Source: Gammaproteobacteria bacterium (GTDB lineage: Bacteria; Pseudomonadota; Gammaproteobacteria; Eutrophobiales; Eutrophobiaceae). From it: a stretch of 64,000 bases of DNA. The translations under genes were made by a program, and so were the position numbers. Positions 20,931-43,223 of this stretch are shown here, one piece after another (position 1 is the stretch's first letter; each line of letters opens with the position of its first letter). Under the pieces are notes generated by a model. It did not search any database, was not told the origin of the DNA, and saw only the letters and a program-made list of their open reading frames with translations. The stretch is from positions 3,616,001-3,680,000 of the forward strand of contig OZ220696.1 of assembly GCA_965116495.1 (NCBI GenBank), in the 5' to 3' direction.

Positions 20931-21125
20931 TCAGCGAAAGTAGTACCATGGTCGGCGAACCATGGGGGGTCCCGGTGACAAGATTTAGTGATTTACTGTT
21001 GACTTGTATCTATAATGAGTGAGATATTTGTGGACAGTGATTATATTTTGTGTAAAAGTGTGTAATAATTAGTAGAAACCAAAGAATTCGTTTACTTCTA
21101 TCTGAAATAACAGGAGAAAAAAGTT

Positions 21126-24100
21126 ATGGCAACTGTAAAAGAGATGATGATGCAAGATGCGGCTGCAAGCATCGAGACCTCATACATGATGGCTGTCGGC
21201 GATACGTTCGAAGGCAACCTAGACGGCCCGGGAGACTCAGACTGGATAGCGATCGAGCTGGAAGCGGGGACGACCTATGTAATCACTCTAATGGGCGCGG
21301 AAGAAGATGGGGCTGCCGATACCGTCCTGACGTTGCGTGATTCCAAGGGCGGCATGATTGCCATGAACGACGACATCAGATCTGTTGGAACGCCGCGAGA
21401 TGCGGCAGACCTCAACTCACAGGTTATGGTTCGAGTTGAACAGGACGGCACCTATTACATCGACGCCAGCAGCTACAACAGGATCCCCGGCGATGACAAT
21501 TCCGGCGATTACATGGTTACTGTCGAGGCGCTGGACCTGCCTGCGGATATCGTAGGTACCAAAGCCTCAGAGAAGATCGACGGCACAGACGCTTCGGAGT
21601 CAATTCATGGTCTGGAAGGAAACGACACGATCAACGGCATGGGCGGCGACGACGAGATAGACGGCGGCGCTGGCAATGACTTTATCACGGGCGGTCCCGG
21701 CGCCGATAAGATCAGTGGCGGTGACAATGCTCCAGATGATGAAGCTACTACTGAGGTAGATGAATCAGCTTTCGGCGACACCATATCCTACGAATATTCG
21801 CCAATGGGTGTCACCATCAACCTGAATGATGGCACGGCCAGGGGCGGCGATGCCGAGGGCGATGAGTTGGGTGACGACATCGAGAACGTGCGCGGTTCTA
21901 TGCATGACGATACACTGACCGGCACGGATGACCCCAGCAATCCTAACAGGTTGTGGGGTTTGGACGGAAACGACGTTCTCACTGGTAGAGAAGGCCCTGA
22001 CATACTCTCCGGCGGCGCCGGTGATGACATGCTGGACGGCGGCGATGAGGACGATACGCTGGAAGGCGGCTATGGCGCGGATACGCTGACCGGTGGTTTG
22101 GGCGCGGATACCGCCTCCTACGCCGGTTCCATGATGGGTGTCACGGTACGGCTGCATTCCGGCCAGGCCATGGGCGGCGATGCCGAGGGCGATATCTGGG
22201 GCGACATGGTAACCGTGCCGTACACCGTAGCGGCTGAGGATCCCGAGGACCCCGATGTGGAAATGGAGGAGACCGTACCGGATATTATCAATCTGACCGG
22301 TTCTCACATGGCCGATATACTGGCCGGCGATAGCAGGCACAACACTATCATGGGCAATGGCGGCGATGACAAGATCTACGGCGGCCCCGGCGGTGGTGAT
22401 GATGTGCTGCACGGCGGTGACGGCAATGACATGGTGTTCGGCGGCAGGGGCGATGACACTCACCGCGGTGGCGCGGGTAATGACACGCTGCATGGCGGCC
22501 CTGGCGCTGACGATTTTTATGGCGGCGCCGGTAATGACATGATCTATGCGGATCTTGATGATGATGTTATTGACGGAGGAAGTAATCCAGAAGGACATCC
22601 ACCGGATATGGACACCGTCTCATTTGCAAGATTGGTGGATATGAACGTTGGAACGAGTGCAGATGACCCATTTACCCTTGGGGCTCGCGCAGAGGATAGA
22701 ACAATACCCGCTGATGTTGATGCAGTAAACATCGAGCGTGTCATCGGTACGGACGAGGATGATTTTATAACCGGTGCAGATGAGTCAGCAGACGATGAAA
22801 ATGACGCAGGGGAAGAAATCGAAGGCGGCGACGGTGGCGATACGCTTGTTGGCGGCGCTGGTGGTGGTGATACCGTCTCCTACGAAAGTTCCGACCGCCG
22901 CGTGCGGGTGGATCTTGGCGATGGCACTGCCACCGGGGAGGCCGGATCGAGCAACTCCGGCGGTCACGCCACGGGGGACACCATCTCCGGTTTTGAGAAT
23001 ATCAAGGGTTCGGCCCATGGCGACGTCCTGACAGCCTTGGCTGGAACGGCTGGTCAGACCGCCGGCAGCACACTCTGGGGTCTCGGCGGTGATGACTCTC
23101 TGGTAGGCGGCCTTGGTAATGACACCATTGAAGGCGGCGCCGGTGCTGATGAGCTGGATGGTGGGCTTACAAGGGCTACAGCAGAGGATGAGACTACAGC
23201 AAATACCCAGGCCAACACCTTGTCCTATGCCGGTTCGGATGCGGGCGTAACGGTGAATCTGGTTACTTCAACCGCATCAGGCGGTCATGCCGAAGGTGAT
23301 GAAATTGAGACCTACGAACTCACGCTCGGTGAGGGAGACGATGAGACGGAAATCGATGTTGCCACCTTCGTAAACGTGACCGGGTCAATGCATAATGACC
23401 GCTTGACCGGTGATATGTTCGGTAACCATCTCACGGGTGGCGCTGGTGACGACCGCTTGAGCGGTGGCGCCGGAGAGGACGTGCTCTCTGGTGGCCCGGG
23501 CGCCGACAGGCTGGATGGTGGAAGTTCGACGCTGGCGGAAGAAGATGACGAGAACACGACAGATGTCAATGAGGCCACGACTCAGCATGAAGACTGGGCA
23601 GCTTATCGCGGCGCTATGGAAGGTGTTACGGTGAACCTGAACACCGGTATGGGCACCGGTGGAGACGCCATGGGTGACACGCTCAGGAATATCGAATTGA
23701 TATGGGGTTCCATGGCCACGGATAGCGGTGATACGTTCATAGCCAGTGAGGGTGCCGACATCATCCACGGAGATGGCGGTAGTGATACCGTGTCTTACGA
23801 AGCATCGAAGCATGGCGTTAACGTTGTATTGGTGGGTAACGGTGATACTACGTTCACTGCGGCTGCTGATACTGATACTCCGGATGACGAGAGTGGTGAC
23901 ACACCGGATATGTTTATCGCTGCAACTAATGAAATTCTTGGTTTTTGGAGAATGGGCGGAAATGATGCATCTGCTACTGGAGAGAGGCCGACGGCTGTTC
24001 AGCGTGCCGATACGGATACAACGACCAAGAGCTACGCTGAAGGTGACGTACTGGCCAGCATCGAAAACGTAACCGGTTCCCGTTCAGCCGACAAGATTAG

Positions 24101-24752
24101 CGGTGATGGTGTTCCCAATGTCATCAAGGGCGGTGGGGGCAATGATGAGTTGGCTGGCGGCGGGCAGAATGACACGCTGTACGGTGGCGCTGGTAATGAT
24201 ACGTTAGGAACAAGGTCTGAAATAGCAGCAGTGGATGTAAATGGAGACGGTGATACTGATGACCCTGGAGAAGCTGCAATAGCTGCGGTTATAGATGATC
24301 CCGGCGATGACACGATGTACGGTGATGCCGGCAATGATGACTTGTTCGGTGGCACTGGTAATGACACCTTGGACGGTGGTACCGGTGATGATGACTTGAC
24401 GGGTGGCAACGGCGTAGACACTTTTGTCTTCGGCCCGGACAACGGAAGTGACGTGATTATCAGCCTTCAAATCGAAGGGACCGCTGCTACCGCAGTTGGA
24501 AATCGTACTGGTAATGGCGATTACATCGATCTCACAGCTTTTGGGATCAGGGCGGGCGATTTGCCCGATCTCCTCAGTGAGCGAGCTGGCAATGTTATCG
24601 TTAACTTGGAAGACTACGGCGGCGGCAGAATTACCATTCAGGGTACGACAATAGACGCATTATCAACTGACGATTTTGCACTTATCCATAATGATACGAA
24701 TAGTGGTCCTGGCGTGGGTGATGGAGGAGCCGATGGTCTGTTCATCCTCTGA
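21126..24752 (+). CDS. RTX calcium-binding surface/secreted protein 1 (PPC-like N-terminal domain)
   Basis: Many GGxGxDxLx nonapeptides, no Sec signal, T1SS-type C-terminus; SD CAGGAG. Confidence 0.9.
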   Translation: MATVKEMMMQDAAASIETSYMMAVGDTFEGNLDGPGDSDWIAIELEAGTTYVITLMGAEEDGAADTVLTLRDSKGGMIAMNDDIRSVGTPRDAADLNSQVMVRVEQDGTYYIDASSYNRIPGDDNSGDYMVTVEALDLPADIVGTKASEKIDGTDASESIHGLEGNDTINGMGGDDEIDGGAGNDFITGGPGADKISGGDNAPDDEATTEVDESAFGDTISYEYSPMGVTINLNDGTARGGDAEGDELGDDIENVRGSMHDDTLTGTDDPSNPNRLWGLDGNDVLTGREGPDILSGGAGDDMLDGGDEDDTLEGGYGADTLTGGLGADTASYAGSMMGVTVRLHSGQAMGGDAEGDIWGDMVTVPYTVAAEDPEDPDVEMEETVPDIINLTGSHMADILAGDSRHNTIMGNGGDDKIYGGPGGGDDVLHGGDGNDMVFGGRGDDTHRGGAGNDTLHGGPGADDFYGGAGNDMIYADLDDDVIDGGSNPEGHPPDMDTVSFARLVDMNVGTSADDPFTLGARAEDRTIPADVDAVNIERVIGTDEDDFITGADESADDENDAGEEIEGGDGGDTLVGGAGGGDTVSYESSDRRVRVDLGDGTATGEAGSSNSGGHATGDTISGFENIKGSAHGDVLTALAGTAGQTAGSTLWGLGGDDSLVGGLGNDTIEGGAGADELDGGLTRATAEDETTANTQANTLSYAGSDAGVTVNLVTSTASGGHAEGDEIETYELTLGEGDDETEIDVATFVNVTGSMHNDRLTGDMFGNHLTGGAGDDRLSGGAGEDVLSGGPGADRLDGGSSTLAEEDDENTTDVNEATTQHEDWAAYRGAMEGVTVNLNTGMGTGGDAMGDTLRNIELIWGSMATDSGDTFIASEGADIIHGDGGSDTVSYEASKHGVNVVLVGNGDTTFTAAADTDTPDDESGDTPDMFIAATNEILGFWRMGGNDASATGERPTAVQRADTDTTTKSYAEGDVLASIENVTGSRSADKISGDGVPNVIKGGGGNDELAGGGQNDTLYGGAGNDTLGTRSEIAAVDVNGDGDTDDPGEAAIAAVIDDPGDDTMYGDAGNDDLFGGTGNDTLDGGTGDDDLTGGNGVDTFVFGPDNGSDVIISLQIEGTAATAVGNRTGNGDYIDLTAFGIRAGDLPDLLSERAGNVIVNLEDYGGGRITIQGTTIDALSTDDFALIHNDTNSGPGVGDGGADGLFIL

Positions 24753-24800
24753 TAGTTGAGAGTAAACCAATCTTCCTGATTTCACGGAAGTAAACGACTA

Positions 24801-24851
24801 CAGGGGCGGTTTAAACGGGGAAACCTGTTTAAACTGGCCCCTGTTTTATTT
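24801..24851 (+). terminator. intrinsic terminator of RTX gene 1
   Basis: CAGGGGC..GTTTAAAC..GTTTAAAC..GCCCCTG hairpin followed by TTTTATTT; conserved after RTX genes 2 and 3. Confidence 0.75.
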
Positions 24852-25252
24852 GTACCCCCCAGTCGTTCCGGGCTTGACCCGGAACCCAGTCATTTACCGA
24901 GTTACCTATGGATTCCGGCGTTCGCCAGAATAACGGGGTAGAGTAATTCAGGACACCCGTAAATTAGATAGCCGTACCTGTAGCCTTCCAGGGTCGGACG
25001 GAAAAAATTGGAGATAAACAATAAAGTATCATGCTTTCATAATTCTAAGTTATTGATTTTATTAGGTAGCGTTTTTGTGATAAAACCGAAAGTATCATAC
25101 TTTGGATTCAATTTAGTTCTAATCTGCTCATTAAACCGAACAAAGAAATCACCCTTGCCTGCACGAGACAACCTGTTCATTACATAAAATAATGAGCAAC
25201 AACGAGTTCACATTTACAAGAAAGCACTCTCTCTGCTACTATTAATCATAAG

Positions 25253-25489
25253 GTGAACAAAATGAGCGCAATAGACCTCTACCAAGTACTACGCGAGATA
25301 CCAAACGTATCCGAAGAACAAGCCAAACAGGCCGTCAGTGGTCTGGAACAACCAAAAGGCATCAATAACATTGAAGAACGCGTCAAAAATACCGAAGAAC
25401 GGCTGATTAAAGTTGAAACCAAAATCAACTACAGCATAGCCCTCCAGATTGGTATATTCCTAACGGCACTAAGTATTGCTTTTGGATAA
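25253..25489 (+). CDS. small coiled-coil protein with C-terminal membrane anchor (DUF1640/CCDC90-like)
   Basis: LYQVLREIP..SEEQAK, a coiled coil and a hydrophobic tail. Confidence 0.6.
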   Translation: MNKMSAIDLYQVLREIPNVSEEQAKQAVSGLEQPKGINNIEERVKNTEERLIKVETKINYSIALQIGIFLTALSIAFG

Positions 25490-25685
25490 CCCCGATACTC
25501 ATCAGCATCATAAGAACATCTTAAAAACCTCTTCCGTTCCCTGCTAACAAGAACTGTTGAGCGTCCAAGTTTATCGTACAAAAGTATGATACTTTCTTGT
25601 AGGTATGATACTTCTTTGTGAATGAACAAAAATCACGCAACGATATTTGTACAAGTCGGAATAAGCATTATGAACGCCTGCTGCG

Positions 25686-26083: not shown

Positions 26084-26245
26084 AAAGAGCAAAAATACCC
26101 AAAGAACACACCCACAAATCCACCCCTTCCGCCATTTCCACGCAAGCGGGAATCCATTTTATATCCAGCCTCATTCTGTCGTTCCGGGCTTGACCCGGAA
26201 CCCAGTCATTTACCGAGTTACCTATGGATTCTGGCGTTATAAGCA

Positions 26246-27556: not shown

Positions 27557-27660
27557 ACTAGTTTTGTAGTACTCTAAAATTTGTGGGTGTCCCGAACTAC
27601 ATCCTGAACTACATTCGTCCTGAACCACATCCGTCATTCCTGCGGAAGCAGGAATCCAGT

Positions 27661-27809
27661 GGGTTCCGGCTCAAGCCGGAACGACGTGGTGGGCTCCTGC
27701 TCAAGCCGGAACGACGTGGTGGGCTCCTGCTCAAGCCGGAACGACGTGGTGGGCTCCTGCTCAAGCCGGAACGACGTGGTGGGCTCCTGCTCAAGCCGGA
27801 ACGACGTGG
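27661..27809. repeat. ~5 tandem 30-bp REP-derived units (GGGCTCCTGCTCAAGCCGGAACGACGTGGT)
   Basis: Directly visible tandem array with no spacers. Confidence 0.9.
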
Positions 27810-27856
27810 AGCGCTCTGGGTGCGTTCAGGTTCCAGTCGTAGTAGTCGTGGAGTGC

Positions 27857-28684: not shown

Positions 28685-28691
28685 AATTGAG

Positions 28692-30342: not shown

Positions 30343-30762
30343 TCAGCCTTTGATGTTGAAACGCCGGGTCAGGTAATACTGCACCATCTCCTGCTCGTCG
30401 GGACGGCCGGCACAATCGCCGGCGTTTTCACCGGGGCACAACACGCTGATAATGGAGTCGTTTTCCGATTCCTCGAATTTAAGCTCTGCCCGCGTGCGCA
30501 GGCTCTCGACCAGGTCGGCAGCGAGGCTGTTTGATATCTGGTTACGCTTGACAGGGCACTCGGACCGGCTGCAGGCGACCTTCCTGAAGAACGCCACCTT
30601 GCCCTGTTTGTACAACTGGCCGTATTGGCTACCGACACCGCTGCTGCCGGTACTGATGGAACCGGAGGCGAGAGTGGCGGGTGAGAGCAGGGTGACCAGT
30701 GCGCTAAAACAGACAACGACATACAACAGATCTTTTATTGAAGGCTTCAGACAGATCATCAT
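30343..30762 (-). CDS. hypothetical secreted protein with four Cys
   Basis: Signal-peptide-like N-terminus; co-oriented with the downstream cluster. Confidence 0.55.
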   Translation of the reverse strand: MMICLKPSIKDLLYVVVCFSALVTLLSPATLASGSISTGSSGVGSQYGQLYKQGKVAFFRKVACSRSECPVKRNQISNSLAADLVESLRTRAELKFEESENDSIISVLCPGENAGDCAGRPDEQEMVQYYLTRRFNIKG

Positions 30763-30898
30763 TATCCTCTCTCTATAGAGTGAGCATGAACTTAACGAGA
30801 AACTAATGGGTTTATAAATATATCGGGATAGTGAGTCAAGGATTATTTGTTACAGAGGTTTGCGGACAACGTGATTTATGGGTGTCCTGAATTATCAT

Positions 30899-30914
30899 TG
30901 TGAGTTTTATCACA
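30899..30914. promoter_or_regulatory. CRP-type box upstream of tRNA-like copy 1
   Basis: TGTGA-GTTTTA-TCACA; -10 TAAAAT at 30955-30960. Confidence 0.7.
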
Positions 30915-31007
30915 AAAGACGACAGATTTTCTGCAGCAGAAAACGGGAACCGGATAAAATCGACAGGTATAGAAAAACCCGTCCCCCGAGAAGGACGGGT
31001 CGTTTTT

Positions 31008-31109
31008 GCCCGGGTGGTGAAACTGGTAAACACAGGGGACCGTCACTCCCCCGGCCTCTGTAGTACAAGCTACATGCCTTACGGGTTCGAAGCCCGTCCC
31101 GGGCAGCCA
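31008..31109 (+). tRNA. tRNA-like element copy 1: Leu-type body, GUC anticodon, 29-nt variable arm (slightly degenerate)
   Basis: GCCCGGG/CCCGGGC acceptor stem, GTG..GG..CAC D arm, GGGGA-CCGTCAC-TCCCC anticodon arm, ACGGG-TTCGAAG-CCCGT T arm, ends AGCCA. Confidence 0.75.
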
Positions 31110-31120
31110 AAGGCCGTGTC

Positions 31121-31149
31121 AGTATCCTACAGGGATGGAGGGTTGTCAA
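31121..31149 (-). promoter_or_regulatory. sigma70 promoter antisense to tRNA-like copy 1
   Basis: TTGACA-17bp-GATACT on the minus strand. Confidence 0.7.
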
Positions 31150-31729
31150 ACTGTTTTGGGCAACGGGTTTGAACAGGGATGAGCAGGATTTACACTGCGG
31201 GGCACGGGACGGACTCCCGCTTACAACCCTGCCTCGGGGGCCAGGGCAGGCATGCGGGGGCATGCTTGAAGTCCGCTGGATTCCTCTAATTTATGGGTGT
31301 CCCAAATTACCCTTTGCATCCGCCACATGCGTTTGACTGTTGATTCAGGTTCACCTGATTCAGGACACTCAGCACAGAGACACCCATCCCCCTCTGTGCC
31401 CTCTGTGGCAAACAAATAATCGTACCCGATAATAGGTTCAGCAGCCCGGGCGATGTCTTCCGATTACGCCGGGCGCGGCGGTATTCTTTTGCCGAGCATT
31501 TCCAGGGCCGCTCATTGAATACCTTGCAGTACAGGCGCATTGGACAAGACCCGGCGCAGTGGCTGCACAAACGAAGAGCGTATTTACCCGATTCTCAGGC
31601 CCGGGGAACTACCATAGCAGTCACTCCTGCCCTGGAGGCAGAGTAGCTGGTCTGGCTCTACCGTGAGCAGTAATTAGTAAAACCAAAGAATTCGTTTACT
31701 TCTATCTGATATAACAGGAGAAAAAAGTT

Positions 31730-34700
31730 ATGGCAACTGTACAAGAGATGATGCCTGAAGCGGCCCACAGCATCGACACCTCCTACACGATATCTGCTGG
31801 CGATGTGTTCGCAGGCGGAATTACTCGTGGCGATGAAGACTGGATTAAGATCGAGATGAGTGAAGGCAAGCAATACACCATCACTGTCGGGGGCGGTGAG
31901 GGCGGAATGCTGAACGACTCCATCCTCAAGCTGATGGACGGCAAGGGCGGCGTGATCGAGATGAATGACGATACGGACCCCGCCAACGGCAAACTGGGTT
32001 CCGCAATTCACGTTCACCCCGGAGGTACCGGCAGCGGCACGCAGACGTACTATCATCAGTGTCAGCGGCTATAGCGACAATCCGGGCGCAAGTGAATGCC
32101 GGCACCTACACGCTCAGTGTCACAGCGATAGACGTGCTGCCGACCGGCGAGGGTGCGGACATCGAGGGTACGGGTGGCGCCGACAAGCTCACCGGCACGG
32201 CTGATGGCGAGTCCATCGCGGGTCTGGGCGGCAACGACACCATATACGGTGGTGGTGGCGACGACAGCCTGAGCGGTGGCGCAGGTGCTGACTTGCTCAT
32301 GGGCGGTGCGGGCGCCGACACGCTGAGAGGTGGTTCCTCCACGTATGATATTGATGGTGATGGTCCAGGGACAGCAACTGATGAGCACCGGGACACCATA
32401 TCCTACAAGTATTCACCGATGGGTGTCACCATCAACCTGAACGCCGGTACGGCCAGCGGTGGCGATGCCGAGGGTGATGACCTCGGCACGGACATTGAGA
32501 ATGTCATAGGTTCCATGCACGACGACGTGTTGACCGGCACGGATAACGTCAACGTGGGTAACAGTTTGTGGGGTTTGGGCGGAAACGACATTCTCTCCGG
32601 TAGAGAGGGCGAAGACATGCTCTACGGCGGCGCCGGCGATGACATGCTGGACGGCGGCGATGAGAACGATACCCTGGAAGGTGGCTATGGCGCGGATGAG
32701 TTAACCGGTGGTCTGGGCGCGGATACCGCCTCCTACGCCAGTTCCATGATGGGCGTAACGGTACGGCTGCATTCCGGCCAGGCCATGGGCGGCGACGCCG
32801 AAGGCGATACCTGGGGCGACACGGTGACCGTAGAGTACAGCATGCCGGCTGAGGACCCTGAAGATCCCCCTGTTCTAAAGGAGGAGACGGTACCTGATAT
32901 CGTCCACCTGACCGGTTCTCACATGGCCGACATACTGGCCGGCGACAGCAGGGACAACACCATTATGGGTATGGGCGGCGATGACAAGATCTACGGCGGC
33001 CCCGGTGGCGGTGATGACGTGCTGCACGGTGGTGGTGGCGCTGACATGCTGTTCGGCGGTATAGGCGCTGACGATCTCCATGGTGGTGACGGCGATGACA
33101 TGCTGCATGGCGGCCCTGGCGCTGACGATTTTTATGGCGGCGCCGGTAATGACATGATCTATGCGGATCTTGATGATGATGTTATTGACGGAGGAAGTAA
33201 TCCAGCAGGACATCCACCGGATATGGACACCGTCTCATTTGCAAGATTGGTGGATATGAACGTTGGAACGAGTGCAGATGACCCATTTACCCTTGGGGCT
33301 CGCGCAGAGGATAGAACAATACCCGCTGATGTTGATGCAGTAAACATCGAGCGTGTCATCGGTACGGACGAGGATGATTTTATAACCGGTGCAGATGAGT
33401 CAGCAGACGATGAAAATGACGCAGGGGAAGAAATCGAAGGCGGCGACGGTGGCGATACGCTTGTTGGCGGTGTTGGTGGCGGGGATACCGTATCCTATGA
33501 AAGTTCCGACCGGCGCGTGCGGGTGGATCTTGGCGATGGCACTGCCACCGGAGAGGCCGGATCGAGCAACTCCGGCGGTCACGCCACGGGCGACACCATC
33601 TCCGGTTTTGAAGACATCAAGGGTTCGGCCCATGGCGACGTTCTGCAAGGCCTGACTGGGACTGAAACGACGACTGGAACGGTTACTGCGACCGGCAGCA
33701 CGCTATGGGGTCTCGGCGGCGATGACTCCCTGACAGGCGGCTTTGATAATGACACCATTGAAGGCGGTGCCGGCGCTGATGAGGTAGATGGTGGCTTCAC
33801 CGCCAGTACTACCGAGGGAGTAGTGGGTACGAATACCCAAGCTAACACCTTGTCATACGCCGGTTCGGATGCGGGCGTAACGGTGAATCTGGTTACTTCA
33901 ACCGCATCAGGCGGTCATGCCGATGGTGATGAAATTGAAACCTACGAACTCACGCTCAATGAAGGCGGAGATAATGAGACGGAAATCGATGTTGCCACCT
34001 TCGTAAACGTGACCGGGTCAATGCATGATGACCACTTGACCGGTGACATGTTCAATAACCATCTCGCAGGCGGCGCCGGTGATGACAGACTGAGCGGTGG
34101 TGCCGGAGCGGATGTACTTGCTGGTGGCCCGGGGGCCGACAGGCTGGACGGTGGTGAGGATGCGAATGAAAGGAATAACATGGTACCTGATCCTGATGGG
34201 GACGAAGGTGCTATGATGGCTGCTTCAGAAGACTGGGCAGCTTATCGCGGCGCCATGGAAGGTGTTACGGTGAACCTGAACACAGGCAACGGTACGGGTG
34301 GTGACGCCATGGGTGACACGCTCAAGAATGTTGAGTTGGTATGGGGTTCCGCGCATGCTGATACGTTCGTAGCCAGTGAGGGTGCCGACATCATCCACGG
34401 TGATGGTGGCAGTGACACCGTATCCTACGAAGCATCGAAGCATGGGGTTACCGTCAATATGGCGGGTGATAACCCAGTGAACGTTGTTGATACGACCTTC
34501 ACTGCGGCTACTGATACTGATGGTACTCCGGGTAACGAGGATGACACACCGGACATATATAACCCTGCTACTGATGCAATCGTTACGGCATGGAGAGGTG
34601 GTAACTTTACCGAAAGGCCAACCGCTGTCGAGGACTTCGGTACCGATGCAACGAACAAAAGCTACGCCAAAGGCGACGTACTGGCCAGCATTGAGAACAT

Positions 34701-35295
34701 AACCGGTTCCCGTCAGGACGACAACATTACCGGTGATGCCGTTCCCAATACCCTCAAAGGCGGCGCCGGCAATGATGAGTTGAGCGGTGGTGGTCAGAAT
34801 GACAAGCTGTACGGCGAAGCCGGGAACGACGCCCTGAACGGCGATGCAGGTGATGACATGCTCATGGGTGGTGATGGCAATGATGACCTGGACGGTGGTG
34901 AAGGTGCTGACACCCTGAACGGTGGTGCCGGCGATGATGACCTGACCGGTAGCGGCGGCGCTGACACTTTTGTCTTCAGCCCGGGCGACGGAGATGACGT
35001 CATCGTTACGTTCGCTGAGGCAGACGACAAGATTGACCTGAGTGCGTTCGGTCTCGATGCGGATGAATTGAAAGCTGCCATCAGTGTACGTGCCGGTAAT
35101 ACTGTCATCAATCTGAATGATTACGGTGGCGGCACAATCACGCTTCAGGGTACCGATATAGACGTTCTTGAGAAGGGTACAAATGCTGAGGAAAATGAGA
35201 TCGAGACGCTGAGCGTCCGTGTGGATCTCAACAACGATGGTGACTTTGGAGATACAGTTGATGGTGTTGCTGAAGATGGTATCTTCATTATCTGA
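31730..35295 (+). pseudogene. RTX calcium-binding protein 2, frameshifted near 32010-32090 (real or sequencing error)
   Basis: ORFs 31730-32074 and 32059-35295 join into a paralog of 39528-43052; four small insertions relative to that gene. Confidence 0.8.
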
Positions 35296-35349
35296 TCAGC
35301 CGAGGTATTAGTAAACTAATCTTCCTGATTTCACGGAAGTAAACGATCG

Positions 35350-35400
35350 CAGGGGCGGTTTAGACGGGGAAACCTGTCTAAACTGGCCCCTGTTTTATTT
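35350..35400 (+). terminator. intrinsic terminator of RTX gene 2
   Basis: CAGGGGCGGTTTAGAC..GTCTAAACTGGCCCCTG plus TTTTATTT, with compensatory changes relative to the gene 1 copy. Confidence 0.75.
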
Positions 35401-35417
35401 GTACCCTACAGGACCGT

Positions 35418-35446
35418 TTGACAAACCGAAATCCAGTTACGATAAT
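35418..35446 (+). promoter_or_regulatory. sigma70 promoter antisense to tRNA-like copy 2
   Basis: TTGACA-17bp-GATAAT. Confidence 0.72.
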
Positions 35447-35461
35447 CATGACCGGTGCCTT

Positions 35462-35562
35462 TGGTGCCTGGGACGGGACTCGAACCCGTAAGGCTTGTAG
35501 GTTTCGCTGCAAATACCGGGGGAGTGACAATCCCCCGTGTTTACCGATTTCACCACCCGGGC
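35462..35562 (-). tRNA. tRNA-like element copy 2: Leu-type body, GUC anticodon, long variable arm
   Basis: GCCCGGGTGGTGAAATCGGTAAACACG-GGGGA-TTGTCAC-TCCCC-(29 nt)-ACGGG-TTCGAGT-CCCGT-CCCAGGC-ACCA; one C-A mismatch in the acceptor stem. Confidence 0.8.
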
Positions 35563-35570
35563 AAAAACGA

Positions 35571-35598
35571 CCCGTCCCTTTCGAGGGATGGGTTTTTT
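35571..35598 (+). terminator. terminator for the antisense transcript of copy 2
   Basis: CCCGTCCCT-TTCG-AGGGATGGG-TTTTTT. Confidence 0.75.
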
Positions 35599-35655
35599 AA
35601 CGCCCATTGATTGTATAAAACCCCCGTCTTGCGCAAAGCGAAACCTGATCAGATT

Positions 35656-35671
35656 TGTGAGAAAACTCACA
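35656..35671. promoter_or_regulatory. CRP-type box shared by divergent promoters
   Basis: TGTGA-GAAAAC-TCACA; TACAAT (minus, 35610-35615) and TATAAT (plus, 35712-35717) are equidistant from it. Confidence 0.72.
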
Positions 35672-35758
35672 GCCTCCCCAAAAAATATCTCACTCCGCCC
35701 CCTAGGCAGACTATAATCAACCCTGGCGTTTCATCAACAAAGAAGGATACGGGAAAAC

Positions 35759-36055
35759 ATGTCAATGGAATTAATTGCCTTGACAGGTATCGGCGTAACG
35801 GTAATCAGTACCGGCGTTGCACTGGCCGCCCTTATCCTGAATACCCAACGCAACCTGCGAGTGGAGATGCAGGCCCAGCGGGCGGAGACGAAGACAGAAT
35901 TCAAGGCTGTGCGGGAGGACATGCAGGCCCAGCGGGAAGCAATAATCAGCTTACTGGAACGCATGGCGCACCTGGAAGGATTGCTTGAGGGCCTGCGTGA
36001 GGCCATCACCGGCCGGCGCGTGGCTGAAGAAACGGGAAAATACAATACGCGCTGA
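35759..36055 (+). CDS. small N-anchored coiled-coil protein, family A (short)
   Basis: TM N-terminus, EFKAVRED unit, ERMAHLEGLLEG; paralogs at 37970 and 45256. Confidence 0.75.
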   Translation: MSMELIALTGIGVTVISTGVALAALILNTQRNLRVEMQAQRAETKTEFKAVREDMQAQREAIISLLERMAHLEGLLEGLREAITGRRVAEETGKYNTR

Positions 36056-36237
36056 ACAGCGGCGCAACCTCTCGAGTAATCCAGGACACCCTCAGCGCAT
36101 CTACCTAATTTATGGGTGTCCCAAATTACACCGGCCTCCTACGAGGCATCGTCGTTGGGCGTCACGGTGGACCAGAGCAGTGACACTCAGCACAGGACAG
36201 TGGTGACAGGCGGTACGGGCACTGAAGCTGATCCCTT

Positions 36238-36314
36238 TCTGATTTCACGGAAGTAAACGATCGCAGGGGCGGTTCAGACGGGGCAATCCGTTTGGACTGG
36301 CCCCTGTTTTATTT
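36238..36314 (+). terminator. orphan copy of the RTX 3' trailer and terminator
   Basis: CTGATTTCACGGAAGTAAACGATCGCAGGGGC..GCCCCTGTTTTATTT with no upstream RTX gene. Confidence 0.7.
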
Positions 36315-36343
36315 CTGCCTTCCTTTTTGTGATGGGTCGTGTA

Positions 36344-36604
36344 TCAGGAAAAGATCCTGTAGGCAATCGCAAGGATAAAGGGATAAAGGGAAAACACAGC
36401 GAACTTCAAGACCTTCAGTTCGGCGTTCATATCAGAGCGTAGCCCCTGTATGTCCGATTTCAATTCAGTACGCAGTTCCTGCAGGTCGGTTTTCGTTGCC
36501 AGGTTGTCGGTGACAGGCACGACGCCTGCTGCGGCCTTCGCTTTCTCTTCGGACGTTCCGGCTTCCACCAGGGCTTCGTAGATTTCGGCAATCATCATGC
36601 TCAT
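36344..36604 (-). CDS. small coiled-coil protein with C-terminal anchor, family D (DUF1640-like)
   Basis: EIYEALVEAGTSEEKAKAAA, LATKTDL, hydrophobic tail. Confidence 0.75.
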   Translation of the reverse strand: MSMMIAEIYEALVEAGTSEEKAKAAAGVVPVTDNLATKTDLQELRTELKSDIQGLRSDMNAELKVLKFAVFSLYPFILAIAYRIFS

Positions 36605-36687
36605 GCTCTCTCTCCATGTATGTTTATCAGATGTCTATTATATTATCAACGCGGGCAAACGTATTCAAACAGGAGTTCGACGTTTCA

Positions 36688-36703
36688 TGTGAGTTTTGTC
36701 ACA
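36688..36703. promoter_or_regulatory. CRP-type box
   Basis: TGTGA-GTTTTG-TCACA, 19 bp upstream of TTGACG. Confidence 0.68.
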
Positions 36704-36798
36704 AATATCGAAAAAAAAACCGTTGACGGTCTCCATATGTATATTTTACAGTGAGTGTCACTTGAAATTAAGGGAACGGGCGAATCGGGACATACAAC

Positions 36799-37191
36799 AT
36801 GTCTATGGAAATAATAACCATCGTCAGCCTCGGTTTAACGGTAATCACAGTCGGCATCATGCTGGCCGGTCTTATTCTGACTGGTCAGCGCGCCCTTCGG
36901 GCAGAGATGAATGGCCAGCGGGGAGACATCAAGTCCCTGCGGGAAGAAATGCGGTCGGAGTTCAAGGCCGTGCGGGAAGAGTTGCATGCTTACCGGGAGG
37001 AGACCCAGAGAGAATTCAAGGCCGTGCGCGAGGAGATAGGCGGTTTGCGCGAGGAGATAGGCGGTTTGCGCGAACGCATGGCGCATGTAGAAGGACTGCT
37101 TGAGGGCCTGCTGCGTGAAGCCTTCATCGGCAGGCGCGCAGCGCCGGCGGAAGCCGTGGCTGAGGACCCCGGCCCATACGATAAACGCTGA
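36799..37191 (+). CDS. small N-anchored coiled-coil protein, family B
   Basis: TM N-terminus, REEIGGL heptads, ERMAHVEGLLEG..PYDKR. Confidence 0.75.
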   Translation: MSMEIITIVSLGLTVITVGIMLAGLILTGQRALRAEMNGQRGDIKSLREEMRSEFKAVREELHAYREETQREFKAVREEIGGLREEIGGLRERMAHVEGLLEGLLREAFIGRRAAPAEAVAEDPGPYDKR

Positions 37192-37316
37192 CCTGTCCCT
37201 TCCTGCTCATCCCTGTTCCAACCCGTTGCCCAAAACCGATTGACAACGAACCCCGGCCAAGCCATACTGCCCGAACGATTAACTGGAAGTTGTAACAGTA
37301 AAGGAGGTACACCCCA

Positions 37317-37604
37317 ATGATAAATCAGGAAGCCCAACTGAACGGCAGCACGGAAGCCTTTGCCCGCGCCTTTTCCAACCTGGTAAAGGACGCCACCTCA
37401 CACTTGGCCACCAAGGAAGATTTGGACAACGTGGTTGCCAACATGGCCACTAAGGAAGATTTGGACAACGCGGTTGCCAACATGGCTACCAAGGAGGATA
37501 TCAATGAACTGTCAGACCGGATAGACACGACCGACAAGCACATGCAGACCCAGTTTGCCCGACAGGAAGAGAAAATCGCCGACATAGCCCGGAAACTGGA
37601 TTGA
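37317..37604 (+). CDS. small coiled-coil protein, family C (ATKEDL repeats)
   Basis: SD AGGAGG, promoter TTGACA-17bp-CATACT at 37240-37268, three ATKED units. Confidence 0.75.
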   Translation: MINQEAQLNGSTEAFARAFSNLVKDATSHLATKEDLDNVVANMATKEDLDNAVANMATKEDINELSDRIDTTDKHMQTQFARQEEKIADIARKLD

Positions 37605-37969
37605 GCCCGAGGGGCTGATACACCACCCGGGCAAGAACGACCCGTCCCTCTCGGGGGCGGGATTTTTTATGGTAATTCAGGACACTCGCAAATTATCCTG
37701 CCTGCAAGAGGCAGTTTCCCACATACTTGACATGAATGAATGACGGACTGGGTTCCTGCTTTCGTAGGAACGACGGGTCGTGTCAAGAATCTTTCGTACT
37801 TTCTGTCCGACCCTGGAAGGCTACAGGTACGGCTATCTAATTTATGGGTGCCTGAATTACTCTACCCCGTTATAGAGGTTTGCGGACAACGTGATTTATG
37901 GGTGCCCTGAATTACTCTACCCCGTCACGCTGAGGGTGTCCTGGATTACTCGAGAGGTTGCGCCGGTGT

Positions 37970-38407
37970 TCAGCGCGTATTGTATTTTCCTGTTTCTTCA
38001 GCCACGCGCCGGCCGGTGATGGCCTCACGCAGGCCGTCAAGCAATCCTTCCAGGTGCGCCATGCGTTCCAGTAAGCTGATGATTGCTTCCCGCTGGGCCC
38101 GCATGTCCTCTCGCACAGCCTTGAATTCTGTCTTCGTCTCCTCTCGCACAGCCTCGAATTCTGTCTTCGCCTCCTCCCGCTGGGCCTGCATGTCCTCCCG
38201 TACAGCCTCGAATTCTGTCTTCACCTCCGCCCGCTGGGCCCGCATGTCCTCCCGCACAGCCTTGAATTCTGTCTTCGTCTCCGCCCGCTGGGCCCGCATC
38301 TCCACCCGCAGGTTGCGTTGGGTATTCAGGATAAGGGCGGCCAGTGCAACGCCGGTACTGATTACCGTTACGCCGATACCTGTCAAGGTAATTAATTCCA
38401 TTGACAT
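37970..38407 (-). CDS. small N-anchored coiled-coil protein, family A (medium)
   Basis: Same termini as 35759 with four EF(K/E)AVRE units. Confidence 0.75.
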   Translation of the reverse strand: MSMELITLTGIGVTVISTGVALAALILNTQRNLRVEMRAQRAETKTEFKAVREDMRAQRAEVKTEFEAVREDMQAQREEAKTEFEAVREETKTEFKAVREDMRAQREAIISLLERMAHLEGLLDGLREAITGRRVAEETGKYNTR

Positions 38408-38523
38408 GATGTATTTTCCTCAGTCTCCTTGTGTAGTCAGCGCCGGCCTGTTATCCACCGGTTCTGAGTTATCCTTAATATAAAGATACGGTTTGAACCT
38501 GTCCAAACATCTTTTCCCGAGTT

Positions 38524-38539
38524 TGTGGGTTTTATCACA
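38524..38539. promoter_or_regulatory. CRP-type box (one mismatch)
   Basis: TGTGG-GTTTTA-TCACA upstream of a TGGACA-17bp-TATATT promoter on the minus strand. Confidence 0.6.
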
Positions 38540-38667
38540 TGCCACCGCAGGTTAACAATTGAACGGCGTAAACTTGGACACTACCTCCAATTTGTGGGTG
38601 TCCCAAATTACGCCGTGCATCGTGCGACCTGACCCCGGCTTCCCGGTGTTGCAGATTAGGCGCCAGG

Positions 38668-38985
38668 TCAGCGTTTATCGTATGGGCCGGGACCCTCAGC
38701 CACGGCCTCCGCCGGCGCTGCGCGCCTGCCGATGAAGGCTTCACGCAGCAGGCCCTCAAGCAGTCCTTCCACATGCGCCATGCGCTCCCGCAAACCGCCT
38801 ATCTCCTCCCGCACGGCCTTGAATTCTCTCTGGGCCTCCTCCCGGTGAGCATGCAGCTCTCCCCGCAGGGACTGTATGTCTCCCCGCTGGCCATTCATCT
38901 CTGCCCGAAGGGCGCGCTGACCAGTCAGAATAAGACCGGCCAGCGCCACGGCGGTGCTGATGATGGCAATTAATTCCATTGACAT
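38668..38985 (-). CDS. small N-anchored coiled-coil protein, family B (with a family A-type leader and start)
   Basis: MSMELIA start and upstream region match the 35759 gene; the body matches the 44674 gene. Confidence 0.75.
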   Translation of the reverse strand: MSMELIAIISTAVALAGLILTGQRALRAEMNGQRGDIQSLRGELHAHREEAQREFKAVREEIGGLRERMAHVEGLLEGLLREAFIGRRAAPAEAVAEGPGPYDKR

Positions 38986-39072
38986 GTTTTCCCGTATCCT
39001 TCTTTGTTGATGAAACGCCAGAGTCGATTATAGCCTGCCTGGGGGCCGGAGTGAGATATTTTTTGGGGAGGC

Positions 39073-39088
39073 TGTGAGTTTTCTCACA
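39073..39088. promoter_or_regulatory. CRP-type box
   Basis: TGTGA-GTTTTC-TCACA; inverted copy of the 35656 context. Confidence 0.68.
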
Positions 39089-39527
39089 AATCTGATCAGA
39101 TTTCGCTTTGCGGCAGACGGGGGTTTTATACAATCAATGGGCACTAAAAAACCTGGTAATTCAGGACACCCACAAATTATCCTGCCTGCAAGAGGCAGTT
39201 TCCCACATACTTGACATGAATGAATGACGGACTGGGTTCCTGCTTTCGCAGGAACGACGGGTCGTGTCAAGAATCTTTCGCACTTTCTGTCCGACCCTGG
39301 AAAGCTACAGGTACGGCCATCTAATTTATGGGTGTCCTCCCGTCATTCTGGCGAACGCCAGAATCCATAGGTAACTCGGTAAATGACTGGGTTCCGGGTC
39401 AAGCCCGGAACGACTGGGGGGGTACAAATAAAACAGGGGCCAGTCTAAACGGGTTGCCCCGTCTAAACCGCCCCTGTGATCGTTTACTTCCGTGAAATCA
39501 GGAAGATTTTGGTTTTGTTGCCTATGG

Positions 39528-42500
39528 TTATACGATAAAGATACCGTCTGTGGCATCGGTTCCGTCACCTATGCCATCTTCAGCACCATTCGTATCATTA
39601 AGGACAAGTGCTATACCGATTGTAGCTGTCAGTACGGCTATAGTCTGATCCTGAATGGTAATTCTGCCGCCACCGTAGTCTTCCAGGTTAACGACAACAT
39701 TGCCGGCACGCTCGCTGAGGAGGCCTTCCATATCGCCCGGCCTGATCCCGAAAGCCGTGAGGTCGATGTAATCGCCATCGCCGGTACGATTCGTGGCGTC
39801 GCCAGCAGCAGTCGGCGCTAATTCAATGTCGATAATGACGTCGCTTCCGTTGCCCGGGGTGAAGACAAAAGTGTCTATGCCTGTACCACCGGTCAGGTCA
39901 TCATCACCAGCGCCACCATTTATGGTGTCATTACCGGCGCCGCCATTTATGGTGTCATTGCCGGCGTCACCGTACATCATGTCATTGCCTGCGTCAGTAG
40001 CTGCAGCCTCTCCACGATCACTGTTATCGTTGTCGTCATTCAAGTCCGCTTCAGCTCTTTCGCCTATTACATCATTGCCGGCGCCGCCGTGCAGCTTGTC
40101 ATTTCCATCGCCGCCACTAATCCTGTCAGGGCCGCCGCCGCCTTTGATGACATTGGGAGTGGCATCGCCGACAATAACGTCGTCCTGACGGGAACCGGTC
40201 ACGTTCTCAATGCTGGCCAGTACGTCACCTTCGGCGTAGCTCTTGGTCGTTGTCAAAGTATCTGGTTCCTGGACAGCTACCGGCCTCGGAGTATTTGTAC
40301 TACCTCCTCTCCATTCCTCAACAATTGCATCAGTAGCACTGATAAACGCATTATCATCGTCATTGCCCTCAATATCATCGGGGCCGTTGGCATCGAACGT
40401 AGTAGCATCGTTACCAACCAATTCTACAGTCACGCCATGCTTCGATGCTTCGTAGGATACGGTGTCACTGCCGCCATCACCGTGGATGATGTCGGCACCC
40501 TCACTGGCTACGAACGTATCGTCGTGCATAGAGCCCCATATCAATTCGATATTCTTGAGCGTGTCACCCATGGCGTCTCCACCCGTGCCCATGCCGGTGT
40601 TCAGGTTCACCATCACACCGTCCATAGCGCCGCGGTAGGCTGCCCAGTCTTCGTGCTCTACATCAGGGGTATCAGCATTTTCATCATGGTTCCATTTGCT
40701 GCTTCCACCATCCAGCCTGTCAGCACCCGGGCCACCAGCGAGTATGTCCGCTCCGGCGCCACTGCGCAGGTTGTCGTCACCAGCGCCGCCTTCGAGATGG
40801 TTATCGAACCTGTCACCGGTCAAGTGGTCATTATGCATCGACCCGGTCACGTTTACGAAGGTGGAAACATCTATATCTTCGTCATCGTCATCAGTAGTGG
40901 TGCCCTTGTCATCAAGAAACTCGTAGGTCTCAATTTCATCCCCCTGGGCATGACCGCCTGATGCGGTGGAAGTAGCCAGGTTCACTGTGACGCCCGCATC
41001 CGAACTGGCATAGGACAAGGTGTTTACTTGGCTACTTTCATCAACATCGTCTGTATCTTGAGTTACGCCGCCATCCAGCTCATCAGCGCCGGCGCCGCCT
41101 TCCAGGGTGTCATTGCCGTCTTCACCCGTCAGAGTGTCATCGCCGTCGAGACCCCAGAGTATGCTACCTTGGATACCGCCAGTATTAGGATCGGTATCAT
41201 TCGACCGGGCTGTCAGGTTGTCGTCAAAGGCCGAACCCCTGACGTTTTCAAAGCCGGCAATGTCGTCACCTGATGCATGGCCGCCGGAGGCGGTTGCGGT
41301 AGTTGCGTCGAGAGTATCCTCGCCAGCAGCCAAGTCAACCCGCACACCCCTGTCCGAATTCTCATAGGACACAGTATCACCTATGCCAGTACCACCTATA
41401 AGATCGTCCGCCCCATCGCCACCTTCGATGATTTCAGGGGCAGCGTTTGTGCCTGTCAACGTATCATCCTCGTCGGTGCCGATGAGAGTTTCAATAGAAA
41501 CAAAACGAGGAAGACCCAGATTGATATCGACTCCTTCCTTGTTCCTGGCGTAGGAAAGGGTGTCGTTCTCACCCGGCGCATTATCAGTCATCTCGTTAAA
41601 ATCCGTCGTCATCCCATCGTCCGCCATTGCAGCACCGGAAATGGTTCCGCTATCACCTGTGTTCGCCATGTCGTATATCATGTCACTGCCGGCGCCGCCG
41701 TAATAATCGTCATCGCCCGAACCGCCACTCAGCATGTCATTGCCGCCACCGCCATGGAGATCGTCATTGCCTATACCGCCGAACAGCATGTCAGCGCCGC
41801 CACCACCGTGCAGCACGTCATCACCACCGCCGGGGCCGCCGTAGATCTCGTCATCGCCGCCCATACCCATAATGGTGTTGTCCCTGCTGTCGCCGGCCAG
41901 TATGTCGGCCATGTGAGAACCGGTCAGGTGGACGATATCAGGTACCGTCTCCTCCTTTAGAACAGGGGGATCTTCAGGGTCCTCAGCCGGCATGCTGTAC
42001 TCTACGGTCACCGTGTCGCCCCAGGTATCGCCTTCGGCGTCGCCGCCCATGGCCTGGCCGGAATGCAGCCGTACCGTTACGCCCATCATGGAACTGGCGT
42101 AGGAGGCGGTATCCGCGCCCAGACCACCGGTTAACTCATCCGCGCCATAGCCACCTTCCAGGGTATCGTTCTCATCGCCGCCGTCCAGCATGTCATCGCC
42201 GGCGCCGCCGTAGAGCATGTCTTCGCCCTCTCTACCGGAGAGAACGTCGTTTCCGCCCAAACCCCACAATTTGTTACCCACGTTGACGTCATCCGTGCCG
42301 GTAATCGTGTCGTCGTGCATGGAACCTATGACATTCTCGATATCCGTACCGAGGTCATCACCCTCGGCGTCGCCGCCCCTGGCTGTGCCGTCATTCAGGT
42401 TGATGGTCACACCCATCGGGGAATACCTGTAGGTTATGGTGTCCTCACCGAGGCCACCCCTGAGCGTATCGGCGCCCGCACCGCCCATGAGCAGGTCGTT

Positions 42501-43052
42501 ACCGGGGCCACCGCTCAGGCTGTCGTCGCCGCCACCACCGTATATAGTATCATTGCCGCCCAGACCCGCGATGGATTCGCCATCAGCCGTGCCGGTGAGC
42601 TTGTCGGCGCCACCCGTACCCTCGATGTCCGCACCCTCGCCGGTCGGCAGCACGTCTATCGCTGTGACACTGAGCGTGTAGGTGCCGGCATTCACTGCGC
42701 CCGGATTGTCGCTATAGCCGCTGACACTGATGAAGTACGTCTGCGTGCCGCTGCCGGTCTCCGGGGTGAACGTGATTGCGGAACCCAGTTTGCCTTTGGC
42801 GGGGTCCGTATCGTCATTCATCTCGATCACGCCGCCCTTGCCGTCCATCAGCTTGAGGATGGAGTCGTTCAGCGTTCCGCCCTCACCGCCCCCGACAGTG
42901 ATGGTGTATTCCTTGCCCTCACTCATCTCGATCTTAATCCAGTCTTCATCGCCACGAGTAATTTCGCCTGCGAACGTATCGCCGGCAGATATCGTGTAGG
43001 AGGTGTCGATGCTGTGGGCCGCTTCAGGCATCATCTCTTGTACAGTTGCCAT
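39528..43052 (-). CDS. RTX calcium-binding protein 3
   Basis: GGxGxDxLx repeats; paralog of genes 1 and 2; trailer and terminator at 39426-39510. Confidence 0.9.
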   Translation of the reverse strand: MATVQEMMPEAAHSIDTSYTISAGDTFAGEITRGDEDWIKIEMSEGKEYTITVGGGEGGTLNDSILKLMDGKGGVIEMNDDTDPAKGKLGSAITFTPETGSGTQTYFISVSGYSDNPGAVNAGTYTLSVTAIDVLPTGEGADIEGTGGADKLTGTADGESIAGLGGNDTIYGGGGDDSLSGGPGNDLLMGGAGADTLRGGLGEDTITYRYSPMGVTINLNDGTARGGDAEGDDLGTDIENVIGSMHDDTITGTDDVNVGNKLWGLGGNDVLSGREGEDMLYGGAGDDMLDGGDENDTLEGGYGADELTGGLGADTASYASSMMGVTVRLHSGQAMGGDAEGDTWGDTVTVEYSMPAEDPEDPPVLKEETVPDIVHLTGSHMADILAGDSRDNTIMGMGGDDEIYGGPGGGDDVLHGGGGADMLFGGIGNDDLHGGGGNDMLSGGSGDDDYYGGAGSDMIYDMANTGDSGTISGAAMADDGMTTDFNEMTDNAPGENDTLSYARNKEGVDINLGLPRFVSIETLIGTDEDDTLTGTNAAPEIIEGGDGADDLIGGTGIGDTVSYENSDRGVRVDLAAGEDTLDATTATASGGHASGDDIAGFENVRGSAFDDNLTARSNDTDPNTGGIQGSILWGLDGDDTLTGEDGNDTLEGGAGADELDGGVTQDTDDVDESSQVNTLSYASSDAGVTVNLATSTASGGHAQGDEIETYEFLDDKGTTTDDDDEDIDVSTFVNVTGSMHNDHLTGDRFDNHLEGGAGDDNLRSGAGADILAGGPGADRLDGGSSKWNHDENADTPDVEHEDWAAYRGAMDGVMVNLNTGMGTGGDAMGDTLKNIELIWGSMHDDTFVASEGADIIHGDGGSDTVSYEASKHGVTVELVGNDATTFDANGPDDIEGNDDDNAFISATDAIVEEWRGGSTNTPRPVAVQEPDTLTTTKSYAEGDVLASIENVTGSRQDDVIVGDATPNVIKGGGGPDRISGGDGNDKLHGGAGNDVIGERAEADLNDDNDNSDRGEAAATDAGNDMMYGDAGNDTINGGAGNDTINGGAGDDDLTGGTGIDTFVFTPGNGSDVIIDIELAPTAAGDATNRTGDGDYIDLTAFGIRPGDMEGLLSERAGNVVVNLEDYGGGRITIQDQTIAVLTATIGIALVLNDTNGAEDGIGDGTDATDGIFIV

Positions 43053-43223
43053 AACTTTTTTCTCCTGTTATATCAGATAGAAGTAAACGAATTCTTTGGT
43101 TTTACTAATTACCGAGTATTAGAAGCAGCGTGATTGTCAGTAATGCCCCCTTATAATTGGAATACTGCAGGGTTTTCTGCAGCGATAATGTAAAGAACTA
43201 AAATAGCTTTGAGGATATTAATC

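Follow-up and report, generated by a model that had tools for sequence, protein, structure and literature searches.

The window analysed here, a stretch of 64,000 nucleotides from contig OZ220696.1 of a bacterium of the gammaproteobacterial family Eutrophobiaceae, holds four large genes with RTX repeats, and the first three of them carry a pair of short complementary elements at their two ends. One of these, the leader, lies in the 5' untranslated region (UTR) and contains the core TCGTTTACTTC 28-38 nt 5' of the ATG; the other, the trailer, contains the exact complement of that core, GAAGTAAACGA, and is placed past the stop codon and ahead of a strong intrinsic terminator. Read as RNA, the 3' UTR carries in GAAGUAAACGA the exact complement of the 11-12-nt leader core UCGUUUACUUC, which occupies −38 to −28 relative to the AUG. 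Just 5' of the trailer core, a CUUCC(UG) stretch complements the Shine-Dalgarno (SD) sequence (CAGGAG) and extends the match. The four genes and the ends of the first three are laid out as follows, ORF standing for open reading frame.

21126-24752, plus strand: RTX gene 1, 1208 aa, with a PPC-like N-terminal domain and RTX nonapeptide repeats
21076-21125, plus strand: leader of gene 1, with AAACCAA at 21076-21082, core TCGTTTACTTC at 21088-21098, TGAAAT at 21103-21108 and SD CAGGAGA at 21111-21117; ATG at 21126
24764-24797, plus strand: trailer of gene 1, with AAACCAA at 24764-24770, anti-SD TCTTCCTG at 24771-24778, ATTTCA at 24779-24784 and core GAAGTAAACGA at 24787-24797
24801-24851, plus strand: intrinsic terminator of gene 1, with the stem at 24801-24843, then TTTTATTT at 24844-24851
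31730-35295, plus strand: RTX gene 2, in a broken frame (ORFs 31730-32074 and 32059-35295)
31680-31729, plus strand: leader of gene 2, with the core at 31692-31702; ATG at 31730
35320-35400, plus strand: trailer and terminator of gene 2, with TCTTCCTG at 35320-35327, core at 35336-35346, stem at 35350-35392 and T-tract to 35400
43052-39528, minus strand: RTX gene 3, 1174 aa
43053-43102, minus strand: leader of gene 3, with the core at 43090-43080; SD and ATG end at 43050
39426-39506, minus strand: trailer and terminator of gene 3, with TCTTCCTG at 39506-39499, core at 39490-39480, stem at 39476-39434 and T-tract at 39433-39426
52441-46841, minus strand: RTX gene 4, 1866 aa

The leader common to genes 1-3 reads AAACCAAAGAATTCGTTTACTTCTATCTGA(A/T)ATAACAGGAGAAAAAAGTTATG, with TGATAT in genes 2 and 3 where gene 1 has TGAAAT, and the common trailer reads AAAC(C/T)AA(..)TCTTCCTGATTTCACGGAAGTAAACGA. 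In the three genes the terminator starts 3 nt past the trailer core with a G+C-rich stem of ~20 bp, followed by TTTTATTT (UUUUAUUU), and the distance between the two cores is 3699, 3644 and 3600 nt in genes 1, 2 and 3, respectively. The complementarity across the ribosome-binding site that a preliminary description of this DNA had reported for the three genes was borne out, coordinates included, and so was its remark that gene 4 lacks both elements: the sole core match there (at most one mismatch) is internal, at 50573-50583, and the pairing of its flanks scored a z of 0.0.

The match between leader and trailer is confirmed as real and not the work of chance. The 11-mer TCGTTTACTTC or its complement has seven exact matches in the window and 11 when up to one mismatch is allowed, while dinucleotide shuffles gave a mean of 0.57 such matches and none of 100 shuffles reached 11. 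Moreover, a 21-nt word of the trailer occurs four times in the 4.34-Mb genome, every copy being inside the window.

Some further properties of these genes were recorded alongside. The two ORFs into which gene 2 is split (31730-32100) encode 114 and 1078 aa, and compared with gene 3 it has several small insertions and deletions at ~32007-32090 that add 5 nt net and shift the frame. Genes 1 and 3 remain alike for at least 130 nt past their terminators (24852-24990 and, on the minus strand, 39425-39300), and the common stretch holds small hairpin-rich repeats (..GTTCCGGGCTTGACCCGGAAC.. and ..CAGGACACCC(G/A)TAAATTAGAT..); a copy of the second of these interrupts one trailer in another genome of the genus, G055 (locus L121).

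Predicted pairing and folding of the message ends

RNAduplex gave −27.3 kcal/mol for the leader of gene 1 with its own trailer, as compared with −9.7 ± 2.4 kcal/mol (best −21.1) when the trailer was replaced by 1000 dinucleotide shuffles of itself. The predicted duplex consists of the 12-bp core, then 6 bp (UGAAAU/AUUUCA), then another 6 bp (CAGGAG/CUUCCUG) across the SD. For genes 2 and 3 the middle helix is shortened to 3 bp because the leader reads TGATAT, and the duplexes reach −24 to −25 kcal/mol. When the UTRs were cofolded, the intermolecular helix and an intact terminator formed together in all seven pairs tried.

Taken separately, the trailer folds into a modest hairpin (CUUCC/GGAAG, −5.7 kcal/mol, z −1.6), and the trailer with its terminator into a much stronger structure (−38.1 kcal/mol, z −6.2). 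The complementary heptamers UCGUUUA of the leader and UAAACGA of the trailer are unpaired in the predicted folds.

Pairing of the 5' and 3' flanks was then compared with that of negative controls, namely RTX homologues of similar length that lack the leader and trailer words. Five canonical pairs scored z −4.4 to −5.0, and two further ones, whose trailers lie beyond the 60-nt test window from the stop codon, about −1.5. The controls (six homologues of the congener G046, one of G042, and gene 4) stayed at shuffle level, with z between −1.1 and +1.1. Leader/trailer complementarity was not seen in the six G046 homologues (L133-L138); these encode ~1200 aa, have quite different 5' and 3' flanks and lie among TTTAGCGACGGAAATTTTTCGTCAGGCAA-type repeats.

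A search of the whole window against Rfam 15 at the gathering threshold returned just two tRNA matches and no family over leader or trailer; the same two matches, and likewise none over leader or trailer, were obtained for positions 30700-44700 at E ≤ 0.1.

Spread and conservation of the elements

The distribution of the elements was examined by BLAST of each of them over 126 genomes of the family. Both were matched in the identical 17 of the 22 other genomes of the genus, with a spacing of ~3.3-6.3 kb; the congeners without them by this search are G036, G038, G042, G044 and G046. No match above chance was found in 103 genomes of 33 other genera of the family, where the best E values (0.005 for the trailer, 5e-4 for the leader) belong to short partial matches. 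Within the genus, the element is carried by 3-10 genes per genome of the RTX paralog family.

Exact cores were also counted by hand from pattern scans of 23 genomes. In 48 of 52 cases the leader core has a trailer core on the same strand 1.3-6.3 kb downstream; the remaining four (G047:1130379, G049:4114732, G057:1961455 and G042:3058720) have none. Trailer cores outnumber leader cores, 71 against 52 over the 23 genomes and 19 against 9 in G039.

For the comparison of sequences we assembled 43 leader/trailer pairs from 18 genomes (40 loci from the 17 relatives plus the three genes of the window), a set chosen for having both matches on the same strand with a few kb between them. The columns conserved in ≥90% of the pairs are, in the leader, TTCGTTTACTTCTA, ACAGGAGA and the start region and, in the trailer, CTTCC, TCACGGAAGTAAACGA and the terminator stem, and both cores are invariant or nearly so. 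When the search pattern left the core open, TAAACGA was nevertheless read in 68 of 70 trailers. The variable parts are the stretch 5' of the leader core, the spacer that separates this core from the SD, the loop of 6-9 nt between CTTCC and GGAAG and the distance from stop codon to trailer, the 3' arm lying 15-85 nt past the stop and directly before the terminator. The AAAC(C/T)AA motif, which had been described as preceding both arms, does so in this genome; in other species it stands before most trailers but not before the leaders. The first 191 residues of the encoded proteins are only 44-52% identical between species. Since the cores have stayed unchanged while proteins, flanks and spacers diverged, the alignments indicate that both cores are under strong purifying selection.

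A search of genome contigs with the first 191 residues of gene 1 found nine loci, in three metagenome-assembled genome records named 'Gammaproteobacteria bacterium', and nothing outside the genus. A metagenome scan with the open-core pattern returned 119 stretches from 6 of 64 collection parts, none of them with a TAAACGA-like middle, and for that reason they look like chance matches to a pattern that is too loose there.

At many loci of other species (L090-L103 and others) a palindrome-like motif, ATGCGAT(C/T)TA(T/C)CGCAT or TAATGCG..CGCGTAAT, lies 30-60 nt 5' of the leader core, where it overlaps a −10-like TAATAA/GATAAT box. This motif, which may be an operator, is missing from genes 2 and 3 of the window.

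Trailers are also found on a second family of genes. The trailer at the following coordinates had been taken for an orphan, a view that we correct here, as it lies 190 nt 3' of a small gene.

35759-36055, plus strand: small gene encoding 98 aa, with a hydrophobic helix at the N-terminus and a coiled coil rich in repeats; its 3' region contains the 'orphan' trailer
36234-36314, plus strand: trailer and terminator of the small gene, with a degenerate anti-SD CCTTTCTG at 36234-36241, core at 36250-36260, stem at 36264-36306 and T-tract to 36314

This is the one member of its family in the window that has a trailer. The family (98-145 aa) is represented at 35759-36055 (plus), 36799-37191 (plus), 37970-38407 (minus), 38668-38985 (minus) and 44445-46424, and its members combine the N-terminal hydrophobic helix with coiled-coil repeats of 18 aa (54 nt in the DNA) and with a tail, ERMAH(L/V)EGLLEGL, that is conserved; none had a Pfam or NCBIfam match above cut-off. 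In G039 such small genes form tandem arrays 3' of RTX genes, each followed after 96-114 nt by a trailer core and terminator, and comparable trailers are present in G055 and G041. In all, nine small-gene trailers in four genomes have no matching leader. They retain CACGGAAGTAAACGA and the terminator, have a degenerate anti-SD (CGTCC, CTTTC or GTGTCC) and reach −22.5 to −26.6 kcal/mol in predicted duplexes with the local RTX leader.

A candidate antisense module and its alternatives

With moderate confidence, we propose that the RTX trailers pair as RNA with the 5' leaders of RTX messages, which would likely lower their translation. Both message ends would be only weakly folded on their own, and the single-stranded UAAACGA beside the trailer hairpin could serve as a toehold that seeds pairing with UCGUUUA of the leader. 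As pairing extended, it would open the trailer hairpin and free CUUCC for the SD, and in this genome the duplex would spread to ~25 bp, covering the leader from −38 to the SD and burying the latter; a duplex of this length would make an RNase III-type substrate. Pairing might take place in cis once the 3' end of the message has been made, as in icaR, and probably also between messages or through a stable, terminator-protected 3'-UTR fragment, as in OppZ and CarZ (these systems are compared below), such that every trailer could damp every RTX leader in the cell. Genes for Hfq and RNase III are encoded in this genome.

Two routes suggested earlier for such pairing, one from end to end of a single mRNA and one by a 3'-derived RNA that silences paralogs, are both candidate explanations that fit our findings, given the strong complementarity within the UTRs and the purifying selection on the cores across the genus. 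Action in cis is favoured by the near one-to-one pairing of leaders and trailers on RTX genes and by a gene-specific change at locus L076. There, a variant leader (GACACGTTTAC.., GACACG...) is matched by a variant trailer (..GTAAACGGTC, ...CGGTC), and the core-region duplex reaches −19.2 kcal/mol, against −14.7 kcal/mol with the canonical trailer; the change looks compensatory and, as a single event, is only suggestive. Action in trans is favoured by the identical cores in every paralog, by the excess of trailers over leaders and by the trailers on leaderless genes. On our reading, the trailers would act in cis and probably also in trans. A further-reaching version, which we hold to be possible though rather unlikely, would make of the 12-nt core a universal 'address' for a whole expanding gene family: every RTX message, as well as those of the small genes nearby, would end in the same antisense module, and its summed copies would repress all RTX leaders in trans. 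If true, this would amount to dosage compensation at the RNA level, with cross-talk linking the two gene families, and would make it clear why no one copy of the core is free to drift.

Several observations weigh against regulation by pairing of the two ends. Since the core does not vary, it offers no covariation showing that selection acts on the pairing, and selection could act on the core sequence itself, for instance through a binding factor. Outside the core we distinguished group A, which comprises most species including the present one, from group B (G039, G045 and G051; 12 pairs). The non-core helix, formed by spacer and SD with the 5' part of the trailer, averages −9.1 kcal/mol for cognates of group A against −5.9 ± 2.3 kcal/mol for shuffles, while cognates of group B average −6.0 kcal/mol, which is shuffle level. 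Leaders of group B even pair better with group A trailers (−8.4 kcal/mol) than with their own (−6.5 kcal/mol); therefore no sign of co-evolution is seen outside the core, and coverage of the SD is doubtful in group B. One-sided changes break pairs at L073, at L104 and in trailers with CUUCCCG, and the conserved letters beside the two cores (..TA in the leader, TCAC.. in the trailer) do not mirror one another. By itself the leader has a weak fold (−4.9 kcal/mol, z 0.26), no better than shuffles, and a hairpin at chance level lends no support to a switch. Transcription of the leader core is deduced solely from −10-like boxes 20-30 nt upstream. Finally, the variable loop of the small-gene trailers is like that of the RTX trailers in the same genome, so that gene conversion rather than selection may be what keeps them alike.

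An opposite sign of the effect has to be considered. The pairing could be real and protect or stabilise the message, hiding its 5' region from RNase E in the manner of hbs, or it could open a leader hairpin (UUCU.UCUG/CAGG.AGAA) and raise translation. Pairs of group B, which pair well only in a 12-13-bp core that ends ~12 nt before the SD, point in this direction, as does the 3' end of the core (CUUCU), itself complementary to the SD; the 5'/3' interaction of hbs, reported to couple stability to translation, provides a precedent (PMC5737220). However, the leader hairpin, weak and at shuffle level, leaves little to open, the RTX trailers keep CUUCC in nearly all of the 43 pairs, and in this genome the predicted duplex crosses the SD. 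We judge a protective or activating role unlikely.

Another possibility is that both arms bind one sequence-specific factor, either a protein that recognises the 12-bp word on DNA in either orientation or a third RNA, and that their complementarity is a by-product. The constancy of both cores across the genus exceeds what pairing alone needs, the letters that flank them are conserved without being mirrored, and the different, palindromic motif upstream of many leaders (ATGCGAT..ATCGCAT) means that these promoters would have protein sites of their own. Yet the 12-bp word is not palindromic, a DNA site right before a terminator has no evident role, and the genome holds no further copies of the word that would mark a regulon; nor would a common factor explain why the CUUCC anti-SD is conserved and why both arms are placed in UTRs. 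A shared binding factor, too, seems to us improbable.

Less likely still, in our judgement, the arms could be a functionless relic of the inverted duplication of a hairpin-bearing element, kept alike by cassette duplication and gene conversion. Leader and reverse-complemented trailer do align over ~27 nt, beyond the core, the cassette duplications of genes 1 and 3 reach at least 130 nt past the terminator, and the likeness of small-gene trailers to RTX trailers of the same genome is what conversion would give; but conversion accounts for likeness within a genome and not for cores that are constant across 17 species despite the divergence of their flanks, spacers and proteins.

The weakest alternative, suggested in the preliminary description and now highly implausible, is that the arms serve as inverted sites at which site-specific recombination would flip or mobilise each RTX cassette: inverted repeats do bound each gene, and a tyrosine recombinase gene lies beside gene 3 (43209-44192) next to a tRNA-like repeat, but junction motifs and strand-changing joints were not found, genes 1 and 2 have no recombinase nearby among the 13 ORFs scanned, and inversion would separate each gene from its promoter. 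This reading is already weakly refuted. The two hypothetical junction motifs were absent from all 23 genomes, and the contigs of four DNA runs (one study) showed no strand-changing joint over positions 20800-25100. The joints that these runs did contain were of the 'skip' type, within the RTX repeats, and their loose ends correspond to the leaders of the paralogs, genes 2 and 3. A search for sequencing runs covering 20900-24900 found just these four, of DNA or unknown type, and none of RNA.

The recombinase at 43209-44192, the sole one among the scanned ORFs, is a phage-type (tyrosine) integrase that, standing beside the tRNA-like repeat, looks like the integrase of an island. The two Rfam tRNA matches, of 98 nt each, are on the minus strand at 35465-35562 and 44373-44470, with a related stretch at 30898-31110. 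They have an extra arm of ~27 nt, differ in the letters of the anticodon loop (..UUGUCAC.. and ..UUGCCAC..), and are not called by ARAGORN. Both belong to a direct repeat of 214 nt (88% identity) with copies on either side of 35.5-44.6 kb; the small genes, RTX gene 3 and the integrase all lie in this stretch, which therefore looks like an integrated island.

Other repeats were noted elsewhere in the window. Between two minus-strand ORFs, positions 27629-27846 contain six tandem copies of the 30-nt unit GTGGGCTCCTGCTCAAGCCGGAACGACGTG. At 17543-20513 there are four diverged tandem copies of a unit of ~700-840 nt, which have a conserved upstream region in common and each contain a minus-strand ORF of ~190 aa, one of them with a weak Hjc-like Pfam match (E 1.7e-4).

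Relation to known systems

Known natural examples of a bacterial 3' UTR that pairs with the same message's 5' UTR are few, and a full-text literature search, judged by title and abstract, found no report of such an element for RTX or type-I-secreted proteins. The present one is unusual for its multiple copies and for its constancy throughout a genus of uncultured Gammaproteobacteria. Its many copies offer ready-made natural variants for the question of cis versus trans action, and with ~90 nt including the terminator it is short enough for transfer into a reporter of a laboratory host, with no need to culture the organism.

In hok mRNA the 3' arm is placed at the very 3' terminus, and 3' trimming removes it and activates the message. 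As in the fold-back inhibition (fbi) of hok of plasmid R1, complementary 5' and 3' regions would keep the full-length RTX transcript translationally silent. The comparison with hok made earlier nevertheless fits poorly: the RTX 3' arm is located 5' of an intact terminator hairpin instead of at the extreme 3' end, and the RTX genes have neither an antisense Sok-like gene nor a toxin context.

The hbs mRNA of Bacillus subtilis resembles the RTX messages in the long-range pairing of the two ends of one message; unlike what is predicted for them, its pairing is reported to couple stability to translation and to leave the SD uncovered (PMC5737220). Distal anti-SD sequences have been described as repressing over a long range (PMC12697547).

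A closer parallel is icaR mRNA of Staphylococcus aureus, whose 5' and 3' UTRs pair, so that the initiation complex is blocked and a substrate for RNase III arises (PMC3868564). Both it and the RTX messages have a pyrimidine-rich anti-SD motif in the 3' UTR (UCCCCUG in icaR, CUUCCUG here) that is complementary to their own SD region, although this complementarity is weaker in group B. In both, the duplex, here a predicted one, is long enough for RNase III, and the choice between cis and trans is open, the icaR authors themselves leaving it so (PMC3868564). Unlike icaR, the main RTX helix is the 12-bp core upstream of the SD and not the SD itself, and the 3' arm, close behind the stop codon and directly before the terminator, contrasts with icaR's lengthy 3' UTR. 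The RTX element is moreover multi-copy in a paralog family, occurs on a second gene family and belongs to a Gram-negative lineage.

OppZ and CarZ of Vibrio cholerae are autoregulatory small RNAs (sRNAs) derived from 3' UTRs, of a type that accumulates as a stable processed fragment with RNase E and Hfq involved (PMC7398697). Like them, the RTX element shares the terminator of its parent message and is complementary to the translation start region of that message, an arrangement that would give negative feedback, in a genome that encodes Hfq. Unlike them, its target would be the own leader of a single-gene unit, not an internal cistron, and a single invariant seed is common to many paralogous sources and targets. 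Unlike icaR, OppZ and CarZ alike, the RTX module is known from sequence alone. Set beside these systems, the RTX trailer and leader appear as a new candidate in the small class of bacterial feedback elements that work by pairing of 5' and 3' UTRs or by 3'-UTR-derived sRNAs.

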